DNA of 64,000 nucleotides from Candidatus Omnitrophota bacterium (GCA_041650295.1 JBAZLM010000001.1:64318-128317), one strand, 5' to 3'. Counted from the stretch's first letter, positions 54,957 to 64,000 are shown. Notes: generated from the sequence alone by a model not told the origin. Numbers and translations are program-made.

Positions 54957-55121
54957 ATAAAGCCAGATCTTACTACTTAAGTATACACGTTTTTAGTATT
55001 GATTTTCAAGGGGGTAGAATTAATAATTTTTGAAAACGTTTTCTTTTTGCCGTATTTTCCTCTTGAATTTGCCTTACCTATATAGCATACTTACTTTACT
55101 ATGAGCCCGGTAGGCATAAAT

Positions 55122-58100
55122 ATGAAAAACTCTAAACTTAGAAAAATTTTATCTTTATTTCTGTGTGGACTGCTATTGCTTCAGCAGACCGGCTTTGCTC
55201 AGGTGGCCAGCGTCGAGCTAAACTTATCTAGTCGGTTTGCTTCCGCAGGCAGTGCTTTATCCAATATACTATCTGTAGATAAGTTCCGTCCAGTTCATCT
55301 AAGATCTATCTCCTACGATCAACTCAACAATAACTTTAAGCTTTTAATTGATAAAGGGGATACTAAGAATCCCAAAACTCAAGAGATCGAATCTACTACC
55401 AAAGACCTGCTCAACTACTTCTTTGTGGGTATTGCTCTACCCAATAGCTCCTTCTGGGTAAACCTTAGACCTGATGCTCCGACTAACATTATTGATCCAC
55501 TACTGGCTCAAACCGAAGTCGGTAAGATTCTCCTAGAAGCCGACCTGCAACTTAAAAAAGACACCGCTGAAGCCACTAACCCGCAATCCCCAGCAGGCAA
55601 AGCCTACTGGAATAAGCTCTATGCTAAAGCCAATGAACTCTACGGTAACCAGAACGTCAACATCCCCACACTAACTAGACCTTGGATAGTTCCTGATGAG
55701 ATCATTATCCGTGAATCTACCAACAATGCCTATGTCTACAAAGCTACTCTAAAGGTCATGTTAGAACAAGATTATCTTAAAGATAACTCTACCTACTCTT
55801 TTAAAGATGACCGCGCTAAACAACTCAATGAATACTCATCTCAGATTATCAGACAAGAGATCATCCCTAAACTCACTAAAGAGATTAACTCCGCTAAACG
55901 TTATGCCCAACTGCGTCAGGTATACTACTCATTAATCCTAGCCCAATGGTTTAAAGCCAGAAACCTCAACAACCCTAATAATCCTTATGCTAAACAAATC
56001 GACCGTAAAGATCTAACCAACCTTAAAACTAATACTCCTTACTCCGTAGACACTTACTTTAACTCTTATAAACAAAACTTTACCCAAGGCCAATACAACA
56101 TCAAAGAACCCGTCTATACACCCTATGGACAGGTGGTCAGGAGTTATTTTAGTGGAGGCGTGGTATTTGGTGAACCAATAACTAAAGCTATACAAAAGGA
56201 TATTGTTCCAGGATATAGATTAGATATGAATCAATCTTATTTAACAAGTGTAGAAGGTGATTTAGTGCATGTGATGGCAGAAGGAGTAAGTAGGCAGAGA
56301 GCTTATTCTAAAACTGATAGCAATAGCTCTCTTAAAGATCTTGAATATACATATGGTGTAAAAATAAATGTTCTTACTACCAGTGAATTTGATCAAAAAG
56401 CCAGTCAATTGGGGATCAGTAATCCCGGTAAGGGATTTGGTTATTTTGATCGCTCAGCTGACCAGCCGTATGTTTATATTCTTAAAGGCAATGAGAATAA
56501 CCGCGATTTAGTTATGCACGAAATTACTGAAGCTTTAGCCAGACAGAGCCAAGGCGTAGCGACTGCTGGAGCAGAAACGGGAGGAATTTCGGGAAATGGA
56601 ATAGATCCAATAGTTAATAAATTGATTGCGCAAGAAGTGGCTAGCAAGCTGGCGGAATTATCTGTAAAAACTGGATTAAATATTTCAGAGAAGATAAAAA
56701 ATAGTAATGAGCTAGTTAAGTGGATGGAAGCTTTACAAGAATATCCTTTATTGGCAGATAAAATTACTGCGCATATTATTGTTACTTTAAGAATGTTACA
56801 TAATAGTAATAATCCTCAAGATGCCATAAATTTTTGGGGAGATTCTAGAGAAATGTGGAAAGTTAGGGAGGCGCTGGTTCCGCTTTTACAGAGCCAAATT
56901 CCAATGTTGTGGAAACAATTATTAGTGAAATTTTTACCGTTGGTAAGCTATGATCAGTTGTTGCGCATACGCGATCTATCTAGAGAATTACAGGATAATA
57001 TGCAACCGCCAACCTATGCATCCGATGATGATATTAATTACATGTCTACTATTGTTAGACCTACAGGCGACTACATTGCCGCTAGAATAAGAGATACAAT
57101 TCATCGCAATCCTAGTAATAAAATAAATTTAATTTTATTACAAGCTTATAAGGTTTATTTAAATGAAGGGCTTGATGCGTATAGGGAATATTTGAAAAAT
57201 AATCCGCAAACGCAAATATTACCTGCTAATAATATTTTGGATGATCGATTAAATTTTGAAAAAAAAGCTAAAGCATTAGAAAAATGCGATGCCTTAATAT
57301 CTCTGGTAGGAGATCTGACTGGTAAGGCCTCTGGAGAAATAATCATGCAAAGCCGTTTTGAGACTTGGAAGAAAGCGGTGTCTGGGCATAGTGATTTTGG
57401 AATAAAAATTTCTAATTTAATTAATGCAAATCCTGATAATCCTACTGATACTTTAGAGTATTTAGGAGAGATTGTCGCAATGAGAAAAGATCTCCAAAGA
57501 ATGTTTATTGATCTTACTGGCGAAGCGTTGTTTGTAAGCTATTTGTTAGACAATGCTTTAGAGACTCTATATTATGTTAATTGCGACAAAATTTTTGAAG
57601 ACAAAAGTGTTAATTCTTTAATATTAATGAGGAGTCTTTTGGAAAATACCAGTTTAAACGGGTATTCTCAGCAAGAAAGTGCAACAATCTTAGAAAAATT
57701 AAAAGAATGGAGCCAGACAACATCTCTAAAAATTAGTAACAAAAAATCTTTAACTGAAAATGATTGGAGTGAGCTTGTTAAAATATATTTAGATGTAAAA
57801 AATAAAATTATTAATGCAAATACAAATTTAATTATTGATAATTTTTATGAGGAAGCTGCAAAATTAATGGGCATTACTAATGCCGAAGATGTTTCCGCAG
57901 ATATTTTAAGAAATGACACCATTTCTTTGTTATCGCGAGCTTTAAGTGAAGCTCTGGTAAAAGCTGGAATTACGCAAGTCATATATGCTGGAGAAGGGGC
58001 AGGCAAAGTAAGGGTTTTTGATAACCTGGACTTTTTAGAGAAAAATCCCCCAACAGATAACGATATTGTTATTCTTAAATTTGATTTAACTGAAGAACAA

Positions 58101-60530
58101 ATTAGTAGAAATATTACTTCAGCTGTTTCAGCGGTGGTTTTTTCTAAAACCGGGCCAATTTCACATTTGGCTCTTTGGGTAAAGGGTAAACGTATCCCTT
58201 CGGCAATTTGTTCCACTGTTTCGCAATTTGAACAATTTCAAGGTCAGAAGGTTAAATTTATAATTAATGATGACCAAGTAGTTTTAGAACCAACTAAAGA
58301 TTTAGTGGAAGGTTCTGTAAAGCCAGCCAAAGAAATTAAAAAAATAGTGTTGCCTAGGGCAAAGAATAAATTAGAGCATATTATTTACGCTGATCAGTTT
58401 GCAGCTGATAATGCGGGGAATAAGGCAGCGGGATTGAAAAAAATTCCGGCGGAATTTTTATTACCGAGCTTTGTAGTAAGTAGTAGTTTTTATGATGCAG
58501 TATTAAATGATCCGCTTAATGCTGATATTGCAGTTGAACTATCAGATTATTTGCAAAAAGCAATTCGTAATCCATTAGCTAATGATATATCGGATACTTT
58601 AGATAAAGCGAGGCGTTTGATTAATCAATTAGTGATTTCAGATGCTAAAGCAGCGGAAATTTTAGGGGCGATTGAAAAAACAATGGGTCAAAATAAGGAT
58701 TTAAGTTTGGTTGTCAGGTCTTCAACTAACGCTGAAGACCTGCCCGGTTATGTGGGAGCTGGACTTTATGGTTCTTTTAAAAATGTGCGCCCGGATCAGG
58801 AATCGTTAGCTGAAAATATTAAAAAAGTTTGGGCTAGTGTCTGGAATGAGCTCCCCTTTAGGGATCGTCAAGTTGAAGGGATTGATCATTTGGCGGTTTA
58901 TCCGGCTGTACTTATCCAGCAGATGTATCCTTCGGATTACCACGCAACGATTTATACTCAGGATCCGGCAAATAAAGGAAAATTAGTTATTCAATTAAAG
59001 CAGGGGCTTGGCGAGCCTGATGAATATAATGATAAGAATATTCAGCAGTTTTCGGGTATGCCGTATCTTTTTATTTATGACGCTGATTCTCATGAATTAA
59101 GTGTAAAAAGCTATGCTGATATTAATTATAAGTTAATTTTAAGAGATGGTGTTATTCAGGAAGTTTTAGCAGACTATAATAATGATCCTATTGGCGATAA
59201 AAATGGAAGAGAGCTTTTAAAACAACTTGCTCAGGTGGCATTAGATATCGCTGCAAAAGCAAAAACTCCTCAAGATATTGAAGGAGGAATTAGGAATGTA
59301 AGTGGGGTTTGGGAATTTAAGCTATTTCAGTCCAGAGATCAAGCTAATGCATCTGATATAGCCAAGACATCTGCACAGGTTGATAGTAATACAATTATTG
59401 CTGGAGAAATTGGTTCGCTTGCTAATGAAATTGCAGGTTTGTTTCGAAAAGAACTTAAAAAAGGATTAAGTGATAGAAATTTTGATGCCATTATTAGTAA
59501 ATATGGCGGGGTGTTCGTAGGTGAAGGTAGATCTGGCAAGGCTTATAAATTTTCTACTACTACCGGAGAGATGGTAATTAAATTTTTTGTTGATGTTGGT
59601 CCCGTTGAATATACCACGTTTGAATCTGAGGTACGGGGTTTATCGCGGGCAGACAACCCATTATTTCAACAGTATGTAACTAGTGCTAGAGCTAATGATG
59701 ATAAAGTAAGCTATATTGTGACAAAATTTGTGAGCGGAATAAGCTTTGATTCTGAGTATAGTTATTCGGAATGGCAGGAATTAAGCCCAGCTGCACAAGA
59801 AAAATATTTTGATAAAATAGAACAAAGAATCCAAAGTATTCCGGATGAGCATTGGGATCAACTGGTTTTAATTTTTAAATATGCAAAAGAAGAGGGAATT
59901 ATTATTGATGCAAAAAAATCCGATAATTTTAAATATACCCCGGAAAGAGGGTTCGTTGTTTTGGATTATGTGTCTTTGATAAATAAAGAGATGTCTGCTA
60001 ATCTTCTTGAAGAAGCAGCTCCTTTGATTGTTGGTGGGGGCTTAATGGCTCAAATAGGAGATGAGAACATTGCTTTGGTTAAGAGCAAGATAGGCGAGGC
60101 GAAAAAACGAATTAGAAATAATTCAGTGGTAATTGTAGATGAAAATGATACAAAAAAAGGTGGTATTGATTTTCGTTTCTTACCGATTGTTACGCAGTCC
60201 ATGGGTAGTTTAAAAGCGAGCATGAGAGGGATACCCGTAAATACTTTGCAACAAATTAATTTAACTAGAGAGTGGAGTGATATTAATCGTTTAGTTAGTT
60301 CTGGGATTGCTCCTTCCACAGAGCGTTTAAAAGAATACTTTGCCGCTAGTTGTTTTAAAGGAAATCTAGATACAGATAATCAAAAGATAATTGCCTGCAT
60401 TTCGGATATTTTAAGAATGGAAGAGCTAACTTGTTCGACTACCGATGCCACCCTTAAAGATATTTTAGTAGTCTTAGGTTCCGGTAGAAGTGGGGAGGAT
60501 TTAAAGTTAGCGCTGAGTGGGGTTAATTAA
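55122..60530 (+). CDS. giant exported multidomain protein: Sec signal peptide, ~950-aa unknown N-terminal region, PEP-utilizer phosphohistidine swivel domain, PPDK_N-type ATP-grasp nucleotide-binding domain, protein-kinase-like domain, C-terminal tail
   Basis: Signal peptide MKNSKLRKILSLFLCGLLLLQQTGFA-QV; the listed ORF starts 7 codons earlier. Swivel domain: GEGAGKVRVF...NDIVILKFDLTEE...SKTGPISHLALWVKGKRIPSAICST, His codon near 58164. PPDK_N: NKAAGLKKIP...LVVRSSTNAEDLPGYVGAGLYGSF...VWASVWNE...AVLIQQMYPSDYHATIYTQDP. Kinase-like: G-loop VGEGRSGKAYKF, MVIKFF lysine, IIIDAKKSDNF catalytic loop, VLDY. Confidence 0.7.
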   Translation: MKNSKLRKILSLFLCGLLLLQQTGFAQVASVELNLSSRFASAGSALSNILSVDKFRPVHLRSISYDQLNNNFKLLIDKGDTKNPKTQEIESTTKDLLNYFFVGIALPNSSFWVNLRPDAPTNIIDPLLAQTEVGKILLEADLQLKKDTAEATNPQSPAGKAYWNKLYAKANELYGNQNVNIPTLTRPWIVPDEIIIRESTNNAYVYKATLKVMLEQDYLKDNSTYSFKDDRAKQLNEYSSQIIRQEIIPKLTKEINSAKRYAQLRQVYYSLILAQWFKARNLNNPNNPYAKQIDRKDLTNLKTNTPYSVDTYFNSYKQNFTQGQYNIKEPVYTPYGQVVRSYFSGGVVFGEPITKAIQKDIVPGYRLDMNQSYLTSVEGDLVHVMAEGVSRQRAYSKTDSNSSLKDLEYTYGVKINVLTTSEFDQKASQLGISNPGKGFGYFDRSADQPYVYILKGNENNRDLVMHEITEALARQSQGVATAGAETGGISGNGIDPIVNKLIAQEVASKLAELSVKTGLNISEKIKNSNELVKWMEALQEYPLLADKITAHIIVTLRMLHNSNNPQDAINFWGDSREMWKVREALVPLLQSQIPMLWKQLLVKFLPLVSYDQLLRIRDLSRELQDNMQPPTYASDDDINYMSTIVRPTGDYIAARIRDTIHRNPSNKINLILLQAYKVYLNEGLDAYREYLKNNPQTQILPANNILDDRLNFEKKAKALEKCDALISLVGDLTGKASGEIIMQSRFETWKKAVSGHSDFGIKISNLINANPDNPTDTLEYLGEIVAMRKDLQRMFIDLTGEALFVSYLLDNALETLYYVNCDKIFEDKSVNSLILMRSLLENTSLNGYSQQESATILEKLKEWSQTTSLKISNKKSLTENDWSELVKIYLDVKNKIINANTNLIIDNFYEEAAKLMGITNAEDVSADILRNDTISLLSRALSEALVKAGITQVIYAGEGAGKVRVFDNLDFLEKNPPTDNDIVILKFDLTEEQISRNITSAVSAVVFSKTGPISHLALWVKGKRIPSAICSTVSQFEQFQGQKVKFIINDDQVVLEPTKDLVEGSVKPAKEIKKIVLPRAKNKLEHIIYADQFAADNAGNKAAGLKKIPAEFLLPSFVVSSSFYDAVLNDPLNADIAVELSDYLQKAIRNPLANDISDTLDKARRLINQLVISDAKAAEILGAIEKTMGQNKDLSLVVRSSTNAEDLPGYVGAGLYGSFKNVRPDQESLAENIKKVWASVWNELPFRDRQVEGIDHLAVYPAVLIQQMYPSDYHATIYTQDPANKGKLVIQLKQGLGEPDEYNDKNIQQFSGMPYLFIYDADSHELSVKSYADINYKLILRDGVIQEVLADYNNDPIGDKNGRELLKQLAQVALDIAAKAKTPQDIEGGIRNVSGVWEFKLFQSRDQANASDIAKTSAQVDSNTIIAGEIGSLANEIAGLFRKELKKGLSDRNFDAIISKYGGVFVGEGRSGKAYKFSTTTGEMVIKFFVDVGPVEYTTFESEVRGLSRADNPLFQQYVTSARANDDKVSYIVTKFVSGISFDSEYSYSEWQELSPAAQEKYFDKIEQRIQSIPDEHWDQLVLIFKYAKEEGIIIDAKKSDNFKYTPERGFVVLDYVSLINKEMSANLLEEAAPLIVGGGLMAQIGDENIALVKSKIGEAKKRIRNNSVVIVDENDTKKGGIDFRFLPIVTQSMGSLKASMRGIPVNTLQQINLTREWSDINRLVSSGIAPSTERLKEYFAASCFKGNLDTDNQKIIACISDILRMEELTCSTTDATLKDILVVLGSGRSGEDLKLALSGVN

Positions 60531-60670
60531 ATTTAGTAACTGCTATCTTGCTTGCCAGTAAAACCAAACATTATTGCGATAAAAGGTGATTTTATTTTTA
60601 TAAATCATTCTTTACAGTCGTGTATAAAGCGGCTATAATTAATTCCGCTTTATATTTATAGGTCAGTTAT

Positions 60671-60766
60671 TGCCCTGTGGTCTAATTTGAGCACCTTGGT
60701 TTTAAATTTGGCGAAATCCTGCGAGCGCAGCGAAGCAGGAGGTAGGACTAAAGCTATTTAAATTAC
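60671..60766 (+). repeat. repeat unit R1: tRNA-Gln 5' 17 nt + ~54-nt hairpin insert (loop GAGCGCAGCGA) + GGTAGGAC
   Basis: TGCCCTGTGGTCTAAT identical to the tRNA-Gln 5' end, then TTGAGCACCTTGG...GGCGAAATCC-CCTGC-GAGCGCAGCGAA-GCAGG-AGGTAGGAC; same insert family as at 6891-6941. Confidence 0.6.
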
Positions 60767-60860
60767 TGCCCTGTGGTCTAATTTGAGCACCTTGGTTTTA
60801 AATTCGGCGAAATCCCGCCGGTTTTTAGGCGGGAGGTAGGACTAAAATTATTTAAGCTAT
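60767..60860 (+). repeat. repeat unit R2: second copy with a sequence-divergent but structurally equivalent hairpin
   Basis: Identical to R1 for the first ~47 nt, hairpin replaced by CCCGCC-GGTTTTTA-GGCGGG, then GGAGGTAGGACTAAA. Confidence 0.6.
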
Positions 60861-60934
60861 TGCCCTGTGGTCTAATGGTAGGACACAAGAATCTGGATCT
60901 TGTTATCATGGTTCGAGTCCATGCGGGGCAACCA
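60861..60934 (+). tRNA. tRNA-Gln (anticodon CTG) with encoded CCA
   Basis: TGCCCTGTGGTCTAATGGTAGGACACAAGAATCTGGATCTTGTTATCATGGTTCGAGTCCATGCGGGGCAACCA; U1-A72 pair typical of bacterial tRNA-Gln; anticodon loop ATCTGGA. Confidence 0.8.
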
Positions 60935-60937
60935 TCT

Positions 60938-61006
60938 AGCTCTATCTCCGTCGAGAGATAGAGCTTAATTAATCCCTGACGTAGTTTCTCCGTCGGGGAT
61001 TTTTTA
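60938..61006 (+). terminator. perfect 11-bp hairpin followed by an intrinsic terminator downstream of tRNA-Gln
   Basis: AGCTCTATCTC-CGTC-GAGAGATAGAGCT, then CCCTGACG-tagtttct-CGTCGGGG + TTTTTT. Confidence 0.55.
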
Positions 61007-61039
61007 TGTGCCGACGTTGCAAAGAGTTAGGGAGTAGAT

Positions 61040-61250
61040 TGGTTGGATTCATTTTTAAATAAATAATTATTTCTTTAGGCATTATATAAACTGCATAAAT
61101 AGCCATACAGTAGGTACAATATCGCTAAACATCTCGGACTTGGCATTTTTATAATGGCTTCTATATAATGCCATTTACGCCTTAATCTTGGCTATATTTG
61201 CCATATATAATGCCATTATATAGAATAGTGTGGTTATTATGTTAGATTAA
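61040..61250. other. AT-rich region with repeated TATATAATGCCATT / GCCATACAGT motifs between tRNA-Gln and the recombinase gene; candidate att/recombinase-binding site at an integrated-element junction
   Basis: TATATAATGCCATT at 61162-61175 and 61204-61217; inverted copy TATAATGGC at 61154-61162; GCCATACAGT at 61102-61111 and again at 63407-63416. Confidence 0.35.
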
Positions 61251-62888
61251 TTAAAGGTTAGTTTCTTGGGTAAGAGTTCGCCAGGATTCTATTTGTTTAG
61301 TCCAATCAAATTCTCTGGCTATTAGGTTGGCTTTGTATTCTGGCACTGCATTAAGGATTTCATTAGATCCCATGAGAATCTCTTCTTGGATTTTCGGAGA
61401 GAGGAATAGAAGTTCTACTATAAGATGCAATTGGATGGCAGACATATTGAGCCACTGCGCCACTTGTTTAATATTTGTGGCTTTGCCATTATCTAGTAGC
61501 TCTTGTGCTTGGTAGGCAAGGATTAACCGCTGGCGTAATTTTGGTTCATTTTTAATTTCAATTTTAGGATCATGTGTAGTGATATGCCGGACTTCTTTTA
61601 AATCTGTACTGTATTCCTGAGCTGTACCGTCAGAGAATGTAATAAATATTTTTTTAGCCACTGTATCATAATCAATCTGCTTAATTAAGTTTACTAGGAA
61701 TGATTTTTGTTCTTGAGAGGTGAAGCTTTGCCAATTTTCCTTTAATTTAGCGCCTTCTGGATGATTGAACAAGCATTCTGCTACGGCTTTTTCGATTTCA
61801 AGAGCGTTTATTGTTTTAGTGTTGCAGGTGTGATAACCGTATTTCTGTGCATGGATACAAACATAGTACCTATATTTGGTCTGTTGCGCTTTGTAAGTGT
61901 AAGTTGCAATCATTGGCCTATTACAGGCCTTACAGAAGAGGAGTTTAGTTAGTATATTTATAACTTTTTTCCCGCGAACCAATTCTTGATAATTTCGATT
62001 CTTTTTTAAAAGTTCCTGAACGCGTTTATATGAATCTTCATCAATGATTGCTTCTTGTTCGCCTTCATAAATTGCTCCATTATAAGAAACTTTTCCAATA
62101 TAAAGTGTGCTATGTAGAATATGGTTGATGGTTGTATTCTGGAAGGCATTACCATCGGCTTTCTTGCCATCTTTAGTAGTATAGGATTTGCTTCGCAAGC
62201 CTTTTTCCGTGAGCGCTTGGGCAACATGTTTTAGAGAATAGCCCTTTAGGTATAAGTCATAAATAGTTTTTATGGTTTCAGCTTCTGTTGGGTTTATTGT
62301 TAGTTTTTTTGTTCCTTTGATGCAATTGTAACCTAAAGGTGGCCTTCCACCAAGCCATTTTCCTCTCTTTCTAGCCGCGCCCATTTTATCTTTTGTTCTT
62401 TCGGAGATAATCTCGCGTTCAAATTGAGCAAAAGATAGTAAAATGTTTAATGTTAACCGGCCCATAGAGGAGTTAGTATTGAATGCTTGAGTTACAGATA
62501 CAAAGGTAACGTTATGCTTATCAAAAAGCTCAAGAAGATGAGTGAAGTCGACTAGGGACCGGGAGAGTCGGTCAACTTTATACACTACAACGCAGTTGAT
62601 TTTACCGGTTTTGATATCTTCAATTAGTTTTTTCAGCGCCGGTCGTTCGGTATTTGATCCAGTATATCCCCCATCGTCATAAAGGTCATCTAATGCAACC
62701 CACCCTTCATTCTTTTGGCTTTTTATGTAGTTGATGCCGGATTCTCTTTGTGCATCAAGCGTGGTAAATTCTTGCTCTAAGCCTTCAGTGGTAGACTTTC
62801 GCGTGTAAATAGCGCAGTAGATTGTTTGTTTCTCTTGCCCAGTAGCACTGTCCATAATTTCCTTACATTCTAAAGAATAGATAGCCAT
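61251..62888 (-). CDS. large serine recombinase (resolvase/invertase N-terminal catalytic domain + recombinase and zinc-ribbon domains)
   Basis: 545 aa; catalytic region YTRKSTTEGLEQEFTTLDAQRE (Ser nucleophile), VYKVDRLSRS motif, C-terminal Cys cluster. Confidence 0.85.
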   Translation of the reverse strand: MAIYSLECKEIMDSATGQEKQTIYCAIYTRKSTTEGLEQEFTTLDAQRESGINYIKSQKNEGWVALDDLYDDGGYTGSNTERPALKKLIEDIKTGKINCVVVYKVDRLSRSLVDFTHLLELFDKHNVTFVSVTQAFNTNSSMGRLTLNILLSFAQFEREIISERTKDKMGAARKRGKWLGGRPPLGYNCIKGTKKLTINPTEAETIKTIYDLYLKGYSLKHVAQALTEKGLRSKSYTTKDGKKADGNAFQNTTINHILHSTLYIGKVSYNGAIYEGEQEAIIDEDSYKRVQELLKKNRNYQELVRGKKVINILTKLLFCKACNRPMIATYTYKAQQTKYRYYVCIHAQKYGYHTCNTKTINALEIEKAVAECLFNHPEGAKLKENWQSFTSQEQKSFLVNLIKQIDYDTVAKKIFITFSDGTAQEYSTDLKEVRHITTHDPKIEIKNEPKLRQRLILAYQAQELLDNGKATNIKQVAQWLNMSAIQLHLIVELLFLSPKIQEEILMGSNEILNAVPEYKANLIAREFDWTKQIESWRTLTQETNL

Positions 62889-63330
62889 TCCAATGTTGTC
62901 CTGTTATAGCGCAGGCTACATTAGAAAGGGATTTGTAGATATTGCCATTATATTCAAAGCCATTTTCAAGCACCTTAACTTGAATTTCTTTACCTTTGTA
63001 ATTTTTAGTAATAATGCTACCAGGAATCGGAAGACGACGATCCTTCAACTGTGAAACATTGCTAGTTATTGGTTTAATATTATTCGGCCTAAGCAATAGA
63101 TTATTAATAGGGTCATATTTCTGAATAAGCTCTTTAATTTTGTTTTGAGTTTCAGCGGAAATGCCCCCGGATTCCAATTCCTGAAGCCGATAGGCAAGCT
63201 TACGCCAGAGAAATACCTTATTATTCGAAGGAACTTTCTGGCCCGGGAATAACTCTTCGTATTTTGTCTCAAGCTCACTTAGGGTTTTTTTCTTAAGTTC
63301 TACTATTTGAGATAAATTGGTTTCAGCCAT
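62863..63330 (-). CDS. DUF2924-family protein co-transcribed with the serine recombinase
   Basis: LWRKLAYRLQELESGGIS motif characteristic of DUF2924; 26-nt overlap with the recombinase start; listed ORF extends 10 codons upstream of the probable MAETNLS start. Confidence 0.5.
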   Translation of the reverse strand: MAETNLSQIVELKKKTLSELETKYEELFPGQKVPSNNKVFLWRKLAYRLQELESGGISAETQNKIKELIQKYDPINNLLLRPNNIKPITSNVSQLKDRRLPIPGSIITKNYKGKEIQVKVLENGFEYNGNIYKSLSNVACAITGQHWNGYLFFRM

Positions 63331-63588
63331 AATTGGTCTCCTTTTTTCAGTGGTGAGCAAGGCTGTAAAGGCAGTTGCGTCGAACCACTTTCGTTAGTAC
63401 GTATATGCCATACAGTTCGAGAGATAGCAAGTTATATAATAGATATTATTTTCGATTATTTAACCCCCAAGGCGTATTATCATTAGCAAGTTAGTATATT
63501 TTGCCACACCTGTTTATAGGGAGTGTTTCTATAGCGGGTTCCTTCTGGGCGTTTCTAGAATAATACCTCTTGTTTCGCTAGAATTTCA

Positions 63589-63638
63589 TTGACAACCTTT
63601 TTTTGTATGTTATAATTTACAATATCCGAATATTGTAA
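63589..63638 (+). promoter_or_regulatory. consensus promoter plus palindromic operator upstream of the ArsR-family gene
   Basis: TTGACA (63589-63594) - 16 nt - TATAAT (63611-63616); perfect inverted repeat TTACAATAT-ccga-ATATTGTAA at 63617-63638. Confidence 0.5.
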
Positions 63639-63652
63639 AATAAGGAAATAAA

Positions 63653-63982
63653 ATGCAAGAACTTGCCTATAAAATAAAAGCCGATTTCTTAAAAGCTCTA
63701 TCCCATCCTGTGCGTCTTCAAATAATTGAACTTCTTAAGGATGGCGAAAGAAACGTGGGCAGTATTATGAAAACTTTAAGTATACAACAATCAAGCCTTT
63801 CGCGACATCTTACAGTTTTAAGAGAAGCGGGGATATTAAAGTCAAGACAACAAGGTACGGTTATCTACTATGATATTGAAGATCATATTATCTTTCATGT
63901 ATTGCGTCCTATAGCTGAGATGTTGCGTAAGAAGCTTAAGAAGACTGAATCGGTATTAAGTAGTCTGGGTAAAGAAAAATAA
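63653..63982 (+). CDS. ArsR/SmtB-family transcriptional regulator
   Basis: 109 aa; HPVRLQIIELLKDGERNVGSI winged-helix motif. Confidence 0.8.
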   Translation: MQELAYKIKADFLKALSHPVRLQIIELLKDGERNVGSIMKTLSIQQSSLSRHLTVLREAGILKSRQQGTVIYYDIEDHIIFHVLRPIAEMLRKKLKKTESVLSSLGKEK

Positions 63983-64000
63983 AGCTTTAAGAAGAAAGCG

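Follow-up and report, generated by a model that had tools for sequence, protein, structure and literature searches.

Which part of the DNA lying 3' of the tRNA-Gln gene in a Candidatus Omnitrophota genome is foreign, and what kind of element brought it there? The question was raised by an earlier note on a stretch of 64,000 nucleotides (nt; the window), which had described the edge of an integrated element at tRNA-Gln. All the features described there are present: tRNA-Gln(CTG), a gene for a large serine recombinase (LSR), a DUF2924 gene, an ArsR gene with its promoter and palindrome, and repeated short motifs. Moving 3' from tRNA-Gln, the order is an 11-6-11 hairpin, a terminator hairpin, approximately 240 nt of non-coding DNA, and then the LSR and DUF2924 genes on the minus strand. 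On comparison with loci from metagenome, IMG/VR and other contigs (designated by L-numbers), the element-derived segment appears to be short, covering positions ~60935-63452, about 2.5 kb, without cargo. We read it, with a probability of roughly 0.55, as the integration module of site-specific integrative elements that form a family in Candidatus Omnitrophota; the copy at this locus would be cargo-less.

The LSR gene (61251-62855, minus strand) is intact and encodes 534 aa. The open reading frame (ORF) first reported for it, 61251-62888 on the minus strand, was confirmed together with three Pfam domains: Resolvase (PF00239, E=1e-36), Recombinase (PF07508, E=1e-18) and Zn_ribbon_recom (PF13408, E=3e-11). 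An alternative ATG at 62888 would give 545 aa; the conserved start at 62855 is the likelier of the two because the homologues, at 534 aa, begin to align at Met12 of the longest ORF. The protein matched the PHROG 95 integrase profile (E=2e-114), and its sequence relatives in the PDB include the TP901-1, SPbeta, PhiC31 and A118 integrases. An alignment of 30 family sequences revealed the catalytic serine of YTRKS, the VDRLSRS motif and the cysteines C319, C322, C344 and C355 to be invariant. As judged from its sequence, the LSR has the domain composition of a serine integrase, namely a catalytic serine domain with Recombinase and zinc ribbon domains. It carries ~170 extra C-terminal residues with no Pfam match; a ParB-like helix-turn-helix, read there from the sequence, had no Pfam support and was dropped. 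Homologues of the LSR number in the thousands, many of them at ~50% identity and from Omnitrophota metagenome-assembled genomes (MAGs), and a few are close (92%, 73% and 65-70%).

The first gene of the two-gene operon encodes the DUF2924 protein (62863-63330, minus strand; 155 aa). The profile search that the earlier note had proposed as a check placed this assignment well above threshold (PF11149, E=9e-38, 130.1 bits where the cut-off is 31.2, with positions 2-134 of the 135 in the profile covered), and an identical protein is annotated from a Candidatus Omnitrophota MAG. The DUF2924 stop lies 7 nt before the LSR start at 62855, with AAGGA across the stop; the genes would overlap by 26 nt if the LSR started at 62888. 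A family set of 165 loci was collected from metagenome and IMG/VR contigs, and DUF2924 was found directly 5' of the LSR in 157 of them. The LSR of the remaining eight lies within ~270 nt of the locus end, leaving too little upstream DNA for a judgement. DUF2924 and the LSR therefore form a fixed two-gene unit. The pair had been put forward as a recurrent integration arrangement, and its relatives at Gln or other tRNA genes bear this out. Both genes are under purifying selection (dN/dS ~0.09 for each, measured against L003 and L287).

The function of DUF2924 was approached through its structure and its gene order. In the AlphaFold2 model, of moderate confidence (mean pLDDT 78, pTM 0.35), a disordered linker connects four N-terminal helices with a small C-terminal beta-sheet domain, and the model had no significant match in the PDB or BFVD; no sequence relative was found in the PDB. 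The RAMA profile (PF18755) reached 13.4 bits over residues 104-153 (E=0.077), below its cut-off of 35.2, and this resemblance is only suggestive. DUF2924 has been described as a partial match to the RAMA DNA-binding domain (PMC11342252). In the literature searched, DUF2924 appeared in the Wolbachia context only and PF11149 was not mentioned. Because DUF2924 invariably opens the recombinase operon, the role of a constant cofactor or regulator seems more likely for it than that of a classical directionality factor. The latter role would fit poorly with constant co-transcription from the recombinase promoter, and the presence of one conserved operon promoter argues against separable expression of DUF2924 and the LSR.

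The mobility of this pair was assessed by comparing the sites at which it occurs. In close relatives a convergent tRNA gene starts at a nearly constant distance, 313-678 nt after the LSR match, and its identity varies: tRNA-Gln (the window, L003, L005-7, L132 and L287-293), tRNA-His (L127, L130 and L131), tRNA-Met (L128 and L295, the latter being the closed genome of Ca. Velamenicoccus archaeovorus, CP019384.1), tRNA-Glu (L129), tRNA-Lys (L134) and tRNA-Asn (L142). We also surveyed 119 loci from GTDB species with the same tRNA-Gln T-arm and acceptor, 66 of which had at least 2.5 kb downstream. The family was present at none of these 66 judgeable tRNA-Gln sites of other species, three of which had a distant recombinase only. 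Integration at tRNA-Gln, as first proposed, is supported by this comparison, and such sporadic presence at one site among related genomes is the pattern expected of an island. The dS values for the LSR and DUF2924 genes were 0.37-0.96, compared with saturated pS values of 0.60-0.80 for the adjacent POR and gltX genes (window, L003 and L287). The POR-gltX-tRNA-Gln synteny is kept in many Omnitrophota loci. Because module dS lies far below the saturation of host genes with shared synteny, the module entered the same site in these lineages after they had diverged; a divergence different from that of the flanking host genes likewise points to an island.

The target gene, tRNA-Gln(CTG) (60861-60934, plus strand; ARAGORN, Rfam tRNA 60.2 bits), abuts the module at its 3' end. 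Four nt past the CCA end lies a small hairpin, AGCTCTATCTC-6-GAGATAGAGCT (60938-60965), with perfect 11-bp arms, a candidate for the element-side half-site (P' arm) or for an element-supplied tRNA 3'-processing structure. Relatives located at tRNA-Gln, -His, -Met, -Glu and -Lys have an equivalent CTCTC..GAGAG hairpin, at 5-12 nt from the end of the tRNA. The module-borne terminator hairpin detected by a terminator scan (60972-61006) is accompanied by a T-run on the tRNA strand and, on its opposite side, by an A-run, and is therefore predicted to be capable of acting in both directions. The folding z-score for 60935-61010 was -6.8, and compensatory changes affected 8 of the 10 pairs of the terminator hairpin among 12 relatives (RNAalifold). 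The tail that contains these structures is the element's own, because empty tRNA-Gln sites in other Omnitrophota have neither the hairpin nor the terminator.

This tail of ~300 nt was alignable across all relatives regardless of the tRNA (Gln, His, Met, Glu, Lys or Asn), and a profile built from it retrieved the tail next to these LSRs. Read from the LSR, it consists of two inverted TATATAATGSC-type boxes 33 nt apart, more boxes, GAGAT, the block CCCTAACTCTTTG, ATAAAAA with the terminator, and the CTCTC..GAGAG hairpin. The conserved block (61020-61032, minus, i.e. recombinase, strand) was aligned in 10-12 relatives with different tRNAs; its CTTT is invariant and the flanks are nearly so. The AT-richness that had been ascribed to the junction proved to be mild, with a GC content of 0.34 as opposed to 0.36-0.40 nearby. 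An RNA gene within the tail was considered and rejected; RNAalifold supported the terminator hairpin only, and Rfam matched the tRNA alone.

The position of the junction was indicated by tandem arrays of the unit. The hairpin of the distal unit is followed by only TGGGGT (L143), TGGCTGC (L096) or ~10 nt (L004) of a tRNA 3' end, and longer tRNA fragments, of ~24-30 nt, stand beside the hairpin in L140 and L134. Because the distal tandem units keep only short tRNA 3' fragments, a junction at or within the last few nt of the tRNA gene is supported; the crossover position is likewise one that we infer from sequence. The ends of contigs L001 and L294, both 30 nt into the tRNA, were discarded as a clue to the junction, as they are due to a tRNA 3' half common to co-occurring strains and are uninformative on the crossover.

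Between the conserved block and the LSR gene lies a box array (61078-61225), whose boxes are candidate protein-binding sites or promoter elements. TATAATGSC boxes are located at 61078-61088 (minus strand), 61150-61158 and 61162-61175 (plus strand), and, in the form of a 9-1-9 palindrome, 61204-61222; GAGAT, which is invariant, occupies 61131-61135, and TATATAATGCCATT has exact copies at 61162 and 61204. The window contains six copies of TATAATGSC compared with 2.1 expected, and five of them fall within the 143 nt of 61078-61220, which is clustering far beyond chance. The TATATAATGCC boxes are conserved in relatives, and L003, L004 and L005 also keep the box positions and the 33-nt spacing. The box sequence shifts in concert between lineages, e.g., to CTAGTTAATGG in L121 and to CTAGTAAATGG in L143, which suggests that the boxes may be protein-binding sites; no conserved RNA structure was detected in the array by RNAalifold. 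The GCCAT-type motifs within the TATATAATGCC boxes had been offered as plausible att cores. We consider this role untenable, because the boxes are 140-290 bp from the tRNA junction, are intact in the integrated state, and occur in a similar array in L121 without an LSR.

The same array bears on the possibility that the LSR is a domesticated invertase or resolvase, which would act on the inverted boxes at 61159-61225 to switch nearby expression. Two 17-nt inverted arms (61159-61175 and 61209-61225) with a conserved spacing of 33 nt do adjoin the LSR gene, and promoter-like hexamers, TTGGCA-18-TATAAT (61140-61169), overlap the boxes. Against this, the arms enclose a segment of 33 bp, in which a switchable promoter-gene unit would not fit, and the alternative orientation was seen in none of ~15 relatives. 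Moreover, a Recombinase domain with a zinc ribbon is the set found in integrases and transposases, the nearest profile is that of a phage integrase, and the distribution and low divergence of the family indicate horizontal movement. We regard switching of this kind as very improbable.

A further repeat, GCCATACAGT, had been paired across the recombinase module as a possible recombination site. Its two copies (61102-61111 and 63407-63416) are the sole ones in the window, and a repeated 10-mer chosen post hoc within 3 kb is not significant by itself. The copy at 63407 falls in the spacer or extended -10 of the conserved operon promoter, and the copy at 61102 was rejected as a shared site, as it is not conserved in relatives; for the latter reason, the repeat is probably coincidental. 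The repeated motifs are all present as described, and it is their role as att cores, including the GCCATACAGT pairing, that did not hold.

On the other side of the module, the promoter of the DUF2924-LSR operon (63400-63431, minus strand) has a -35 element, CTTGCT, at 63426-63431 and a -10 region at ~63402-63409. At least 14 relatives, whose LSRs show 45-92% identity, keep the sequence CTTGMTATATCTC-N-TGTATGGCYATATGTG upstream of DUF2924. Conservation reaches its limit at an outer boundary motif, AAAATAATATCTATTATATA (63433-63452, minus strand; given on the recombinase strand), with the family consensus AAAATACCTCTCTATT, which lies 8-12 nt beyond the promoter and is common to most relatives. 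Past this motif even modules that are 85-92% identical are unrelated. In the window, homology to the host locus L298 starts at ~63455, ~3-6 nt outside the boundary motif, and nothing stands between the operon promoter and host DNA, where an island at a tRNA gene would carry its cargo.

The host DNA begins with the ArsR-family gene (63589-63982 with its promoter and palindrome, ORF 63653-63982, plus strand). The winged-helix domain HTH_5 was detected with E=1e-13 (51 bits against a cut-off of 22), and the promoter, TTGACA-16-TATAAT with a TG extension (63589-63616), matches the consensus at 12 of 12 positions, both as had been claimed. The operator palindrome, TTTACAATAT-CCGA-ATATTGTAAA (63616-63639), begins at the last base of the -10 hexamer; it is perfect, and its arms are 10-4-10 and not 9-4-9 as first given. 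The protein of 109 aa has no cysteine and so is without the usual thiolate metal site (alpha-3, ELCVCDL-type); for this reason it is probably a member of the ArsR family by fold and not a thiolate metal sensor. The gene heads a cluster of ~12 following genes, seen in full through L001, a Logan contig that is identical to the window and extends 4.4 kb past the window end. The cluster comprises an ACP-like gene, a 133-aa gene, ferredoxin and CarD-like genes, several genes for small proteins, a PG_binding lipoprotein gene and a DUF2934 gene.

Orthologous clusters were identified in L296-L299. Their chromosomal surroundings are ordinary, and neither a recombinase nor tRNA-Gln is close by. In L296 and L297 the cluster follows PNPase-FtsK-RodZ-MiaB-PgsA-PgpA-LigT-CinA, and in L298 and L299 it follows the seryl-tRNA synthetase gene and a group of tRNA-Ser and tRNA-Arg genes; the ArsR promoter and the operator core ATATCCGAATATTG are conserved in these clusters. 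Because the cluster is found without the recombinase and its homology starts at the module boundary, the ArsR gene is host DNA and does not belong to the element, contrary to the first description. The element itself is for the same reason not the edge of something large: host-cluster homology begins right at the conserved outer boundary, and the unit thus ends within the window after ~2.5 kb. In the 4.4 kb of L001 beyond the window, the extension that had been asked for, we found no second boundary or tRNA fragment, only the host cluster. No tRNA-end repeat was detected at the outer junction of the window, in these 4.4 kb, or within 10 kb of the cargo in relatives, and two identifiable att junctions, as an integrated island or prophage would have, were not found over the same range. 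There was also no long boundary repeat around the unit; none is expected for a serine integrase.

In relatives, other genes occupy the DNA beyond the promoter. These include HTH_17 and SNF2/DUF1156/DUF499 genes in L003; genes for a PLD-SNF2 helicase and an MmeI-type enzyme in L004; methyltransferases, a helicase, a ParA-like gene and a group II intron in L005; and methyltransferase, helicase, ParB-methyltransferase and terminase genes in L287. Putative type I restriction-like or cytosine-methylase-like genes, read from the ORF starts, adjoin the boundary in L127, L130, L131, L133 and L143, large proteins with a motif common to both are encoded in L134 and L136, and L295 carries MarR and efflux pump genes. 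In most of the ~14 relatives examined the neighbours are restriction or defence genes, usually divergently transcribed. Family members were also found on IMG/VR viral contigs, and decay is common: L057 has kept a tail that lacks its LSR, and the L096 locus contains a degenerate unit. It is the regularity of the defence-gene adjacency that leads us to read the neighbouring genes as probable cargo, and the window copy as one that has lost it.

The integration module, according to this reading, would comprise the promoter, DUF2924, the LSR, the tail of ~300 nt (box array, blocks and two-way terminator) and the CTCTC/GAGAG hairpin. The LSR, probably with DUF2924 as its constant partner, would recombine a site on the element with the very 3' terminus of a tRNA gene, which in the window is tRNA-Gln. 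The integrated element would then supply the last few nt of the tRNA, the hairpin and the terminator, and the tRNA gene would stay functional because of this supply. In relatives, variable cargo beyond the promoter would consist mostly of restriction-modification and defence genes and once of phage genes; in the window, the cargo and the far att site are missing, and the module abuts the ArsR-headed host cluster. Internal deletion is the most likely route of cargo loss, and on that account the window copy is probably stranded, despite both its genes and its promoter being intact.

The variable DNA also raised the possibility of a fixed chromosomal platform at the tRNA, which would work like an integron and take up or exchange cargo at the boundary next to its promoter. 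The variable DNA begins exactly at the boundary motif and does so at the same tRNA-Gln locus in several genomes, with differing cargo: none in the window, SNF2/DUF1156/DUF499 in L003, a methylase-helicase with phage genes in L287, and a methylase-helicase with ParA in L005. A search for integron-like repeated sites in 10 kb of cargo at ten loci found none, nor were there any extra copies of the boundary motif or hairpin in that range. The module is far less diverged than the host genes, and so moves between genomes, and it is absent from most tRNA-Gln sites. A resident platform is, on these grounds, improbable.

Several observations weigh against a cargo-bearing element that was cut back in the window. 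The outer junction of the window lies within ~3-6 nt of the conservation limit, and a random deletion would rarely end there. The promoter-side boundary of the L096 unit is 14 nt from the tRNA fragment of the preceding unit; together with the boundary coincidence, this favours the 2.5-kb unit as the mobile element itself. The hairpin-adjacent tRNA fragments range from 6 to ~24-30 nt and do not define a single crossover position, and in L121 an array resembling the boxes stands beside a hydrogenase-like operon that has no LSR. A tRNA-Gln 3'-end remnant is absent at the outer junction. Finally, no far att site and no unoccupied site from the same lineage came to light, and integration is therefore deduced from comparison alone.

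The first two of these observations are most readily accommodated by a complete autonomous mini-element of 2.5 kb, IS-like and LSR-driven, which would insert at tRNA 3' ends. Its arms would be the boundary motif (63433-63452) and the hairpin (60938-60965), and the neighbouring defence genes or prophage would be separate islands at the same hot spot. Both window flanks are indeed host-like, the L096 unit is an independent case of a close boundary, conservation among 85-92% identical modules stops abruptly at the boundary motif, and both genes are maintained by purifying selection. The boundary motif (A-rich with TATCT/CTCTCT) looks, furthermore, like an inverted copy of the tRNA-proximal arm of the hairpin at a similar distance from the end, as would be expected for the two halves of a serine-integrase attP. 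If the unit moves alone, the predicted empty site would read ...GGGGCAACCA(TC) joined to CGATTATTTAACCCCC, and the predicted circle junction ...ATAGATATTATTTT joined to TCTAGCTCTATCTC. The adjacency of restriction and defence genes to the boundary in most of the ~14 relatives is hard to explain on this basis unless they travel together with the unit, and the family occurs on IMG/VR viral contigs and beside a terminase gene. No empty site was seen, and the missing tRNA-end remnant at the window outer junction tells against a mini-element too, given that the tandem arrays suggest a crossover inside the tRNA end. We therefore regard independent movement of the 2.5-kb unit as possible, yet well short of probable.

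A further possibility is a two-protein serine-integrase system dedicated to tRNA 3' ends, in which DUF2924 or the C-terminal ~170 residues of the LSR would bind the box array, the 2.5-kb unit would be autonomous, and defence cargo would accumulate alongside it. We consider this scheme rather unlikely. The integration module of a larger, cargo-bearing family, reduced in the window, remains our preferred reading.

Several further features were observed around the tRNA genes concerned. Upstream of tRNA-Gln in the window, two tandem units of ~95 nt (60667-60858) stand between a promoter-like site (60611-60639) and the tRNA gene. Each consists of the first 16 nt of tRNA-Gln, an insert of ~57 nt with a hairpin, GGTAGGAC (D stem 3' side) and a linker, and the hairpin stems of the copies differ with compensating changes. 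The unit has no Rfam family match and also occurs 5' of tRNA-Gln in two other Omnitrophota MAGs, in one copy and in at least three copies, respectively (L106:4975-5070 and L060). The protein of 1809 aa encoded between gltX and tRNA-Gln (55101-60530) contains a centrally placed PPDK_N (pyruvate phosphate dikinase ATP-binding) domain and has no counterpart at that position in the related loci examined.

Introns and other recombinases were also found near these genes. The tRNA-Met beside the module in L295 (12430-12790) is split in its anticodon loop by a group I intron (RF00028, 57.6 bits) and was not called by ARAGORN. L005 (8619-9190) and L008 (538-702) have an ORF-less group II intron near tRNA-Gln; the block shared by these loci was tried as a host marker for an empty site and rejected, being this intron and hence another mobile element. 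In L008, 187-nt tandem repeats also include the tRNA-Gln 3' end twice, as 22-nt copies that stop in the T loop; these are probably scars of a different integrative element. Distant LSRs (23-34% identity) lie just 3' of tRNA-Gln and point to it in L049, L075, L093 and L097, from other PVC-group MAGs; no DUF2924 was detected with these four, and recombinases next to tRNA-Gln may be more widespread in the PVC group. Lastly, a conserved stretch, GTTCCGAGTTTTAAGGTGGGTCTGGA, is shared by L001 (1-40, ~4.4 kb past the window end) and L121 (7200-7310); in L121 it is followed by a terminator-like hairpin and lies 45 nt from a box array. It looks like a small RNA gene and has no Rfam match.

Taken singly, the locus is an ordinary one, a stranded or minimal integration cassette beside a tRNA gene, and its ArsR part is a host gene. 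The family may matter more, with its constant DUF2924, at least six tRNA specificities, own terminator and 300-nt tail, and would broaden the view of how such enzymes choose their sites. It would offer a testable function for DUF2924, also for the gene beside the recombinase of phage WO, and it marks a common carrier of defence genes in a phylum that has been little studied, Candidatus Omnitrophota. Serine integrases are prized for genome engineering for their short sites and because they need no cofactors.

Comparison with known systems places the LSR close to the PhiC31, Bxb1, TP901-1, A118 and SPbeta SprA integrases, with which it shares the three-domain architecture, the catalytic serine and the four-cysteine zinc ribbon. 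As with the serine integrases of phages and islands, its gene stands at the very end of the integrated unit beside the junction, and long flanking direct repeats are lacking. Phage serine integrases integrate alone, whereas the family described here has a co-transcribed DUF2924 partner; it differs from them further in the ~170-residue C-terminal extra, the placement at tRNA 3' ends and the conserved 300-nt tail. The characterised sites of phage serine integrases span 40-50 bp, lie in protein-coding or intergenic DNA, and to our knowledge are without accessory sites. Were DUF2924 or the LSR extension to bind the box array, the latter, at a distance of 140-290 bp from the crossover, would be comparable to the arm-type sites of lambda integrase; we know of no arm-type sites for serine integrases. 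The directionality factors Bxb1 gp47, PhiC31 gp3 and SPbeta SprB are likewise small accessory proteins from the element of the integrase; DUF2924 differs from them in being the first gene of the integrase operon every time and in having no fold match to solved structures. As far as we know, the known directionality factors have unrelated sequences and are expressed apart from the integrase, so that integration and excision are separable.

The tRNA islands of tyrosine integrases share with the present family an integrase gene beside the tRNA 3' end, a restored tRNA end, tandem arrays, remnants and defence cargo. Here, in contrast, the enzyme is a serine recombinase, the duplicated tRNA segment is apparently ~6-10 nt in most arrays where the usual repeat is longer, and there is no far-end repeat within 10 kb. 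In a mycobacterial survey, 16 of 23 attB sites of tyrosine integrases overlapped tRNA or tmRNA genes (PMC10654092); beyond this survey, the literature searched held no statement on serine integrases at tRNA genes. The same gene pair is known from phage WO of Wolbachia, in which a DUF2924 gene adjoins a large serine recombinase at the prophage end (PMC10299305, PMC11376236). Hosts and elements differ between the two, and PMC10299305, PMC11376236 and PMC11342252 do not report the WO module to be associated with tRNA ends or to have a conserved tail. The locus in the window is a variant of the known serine-integrase modules, one that lies at a tRNA 3' end and has DUF2924 as its obligate partner.

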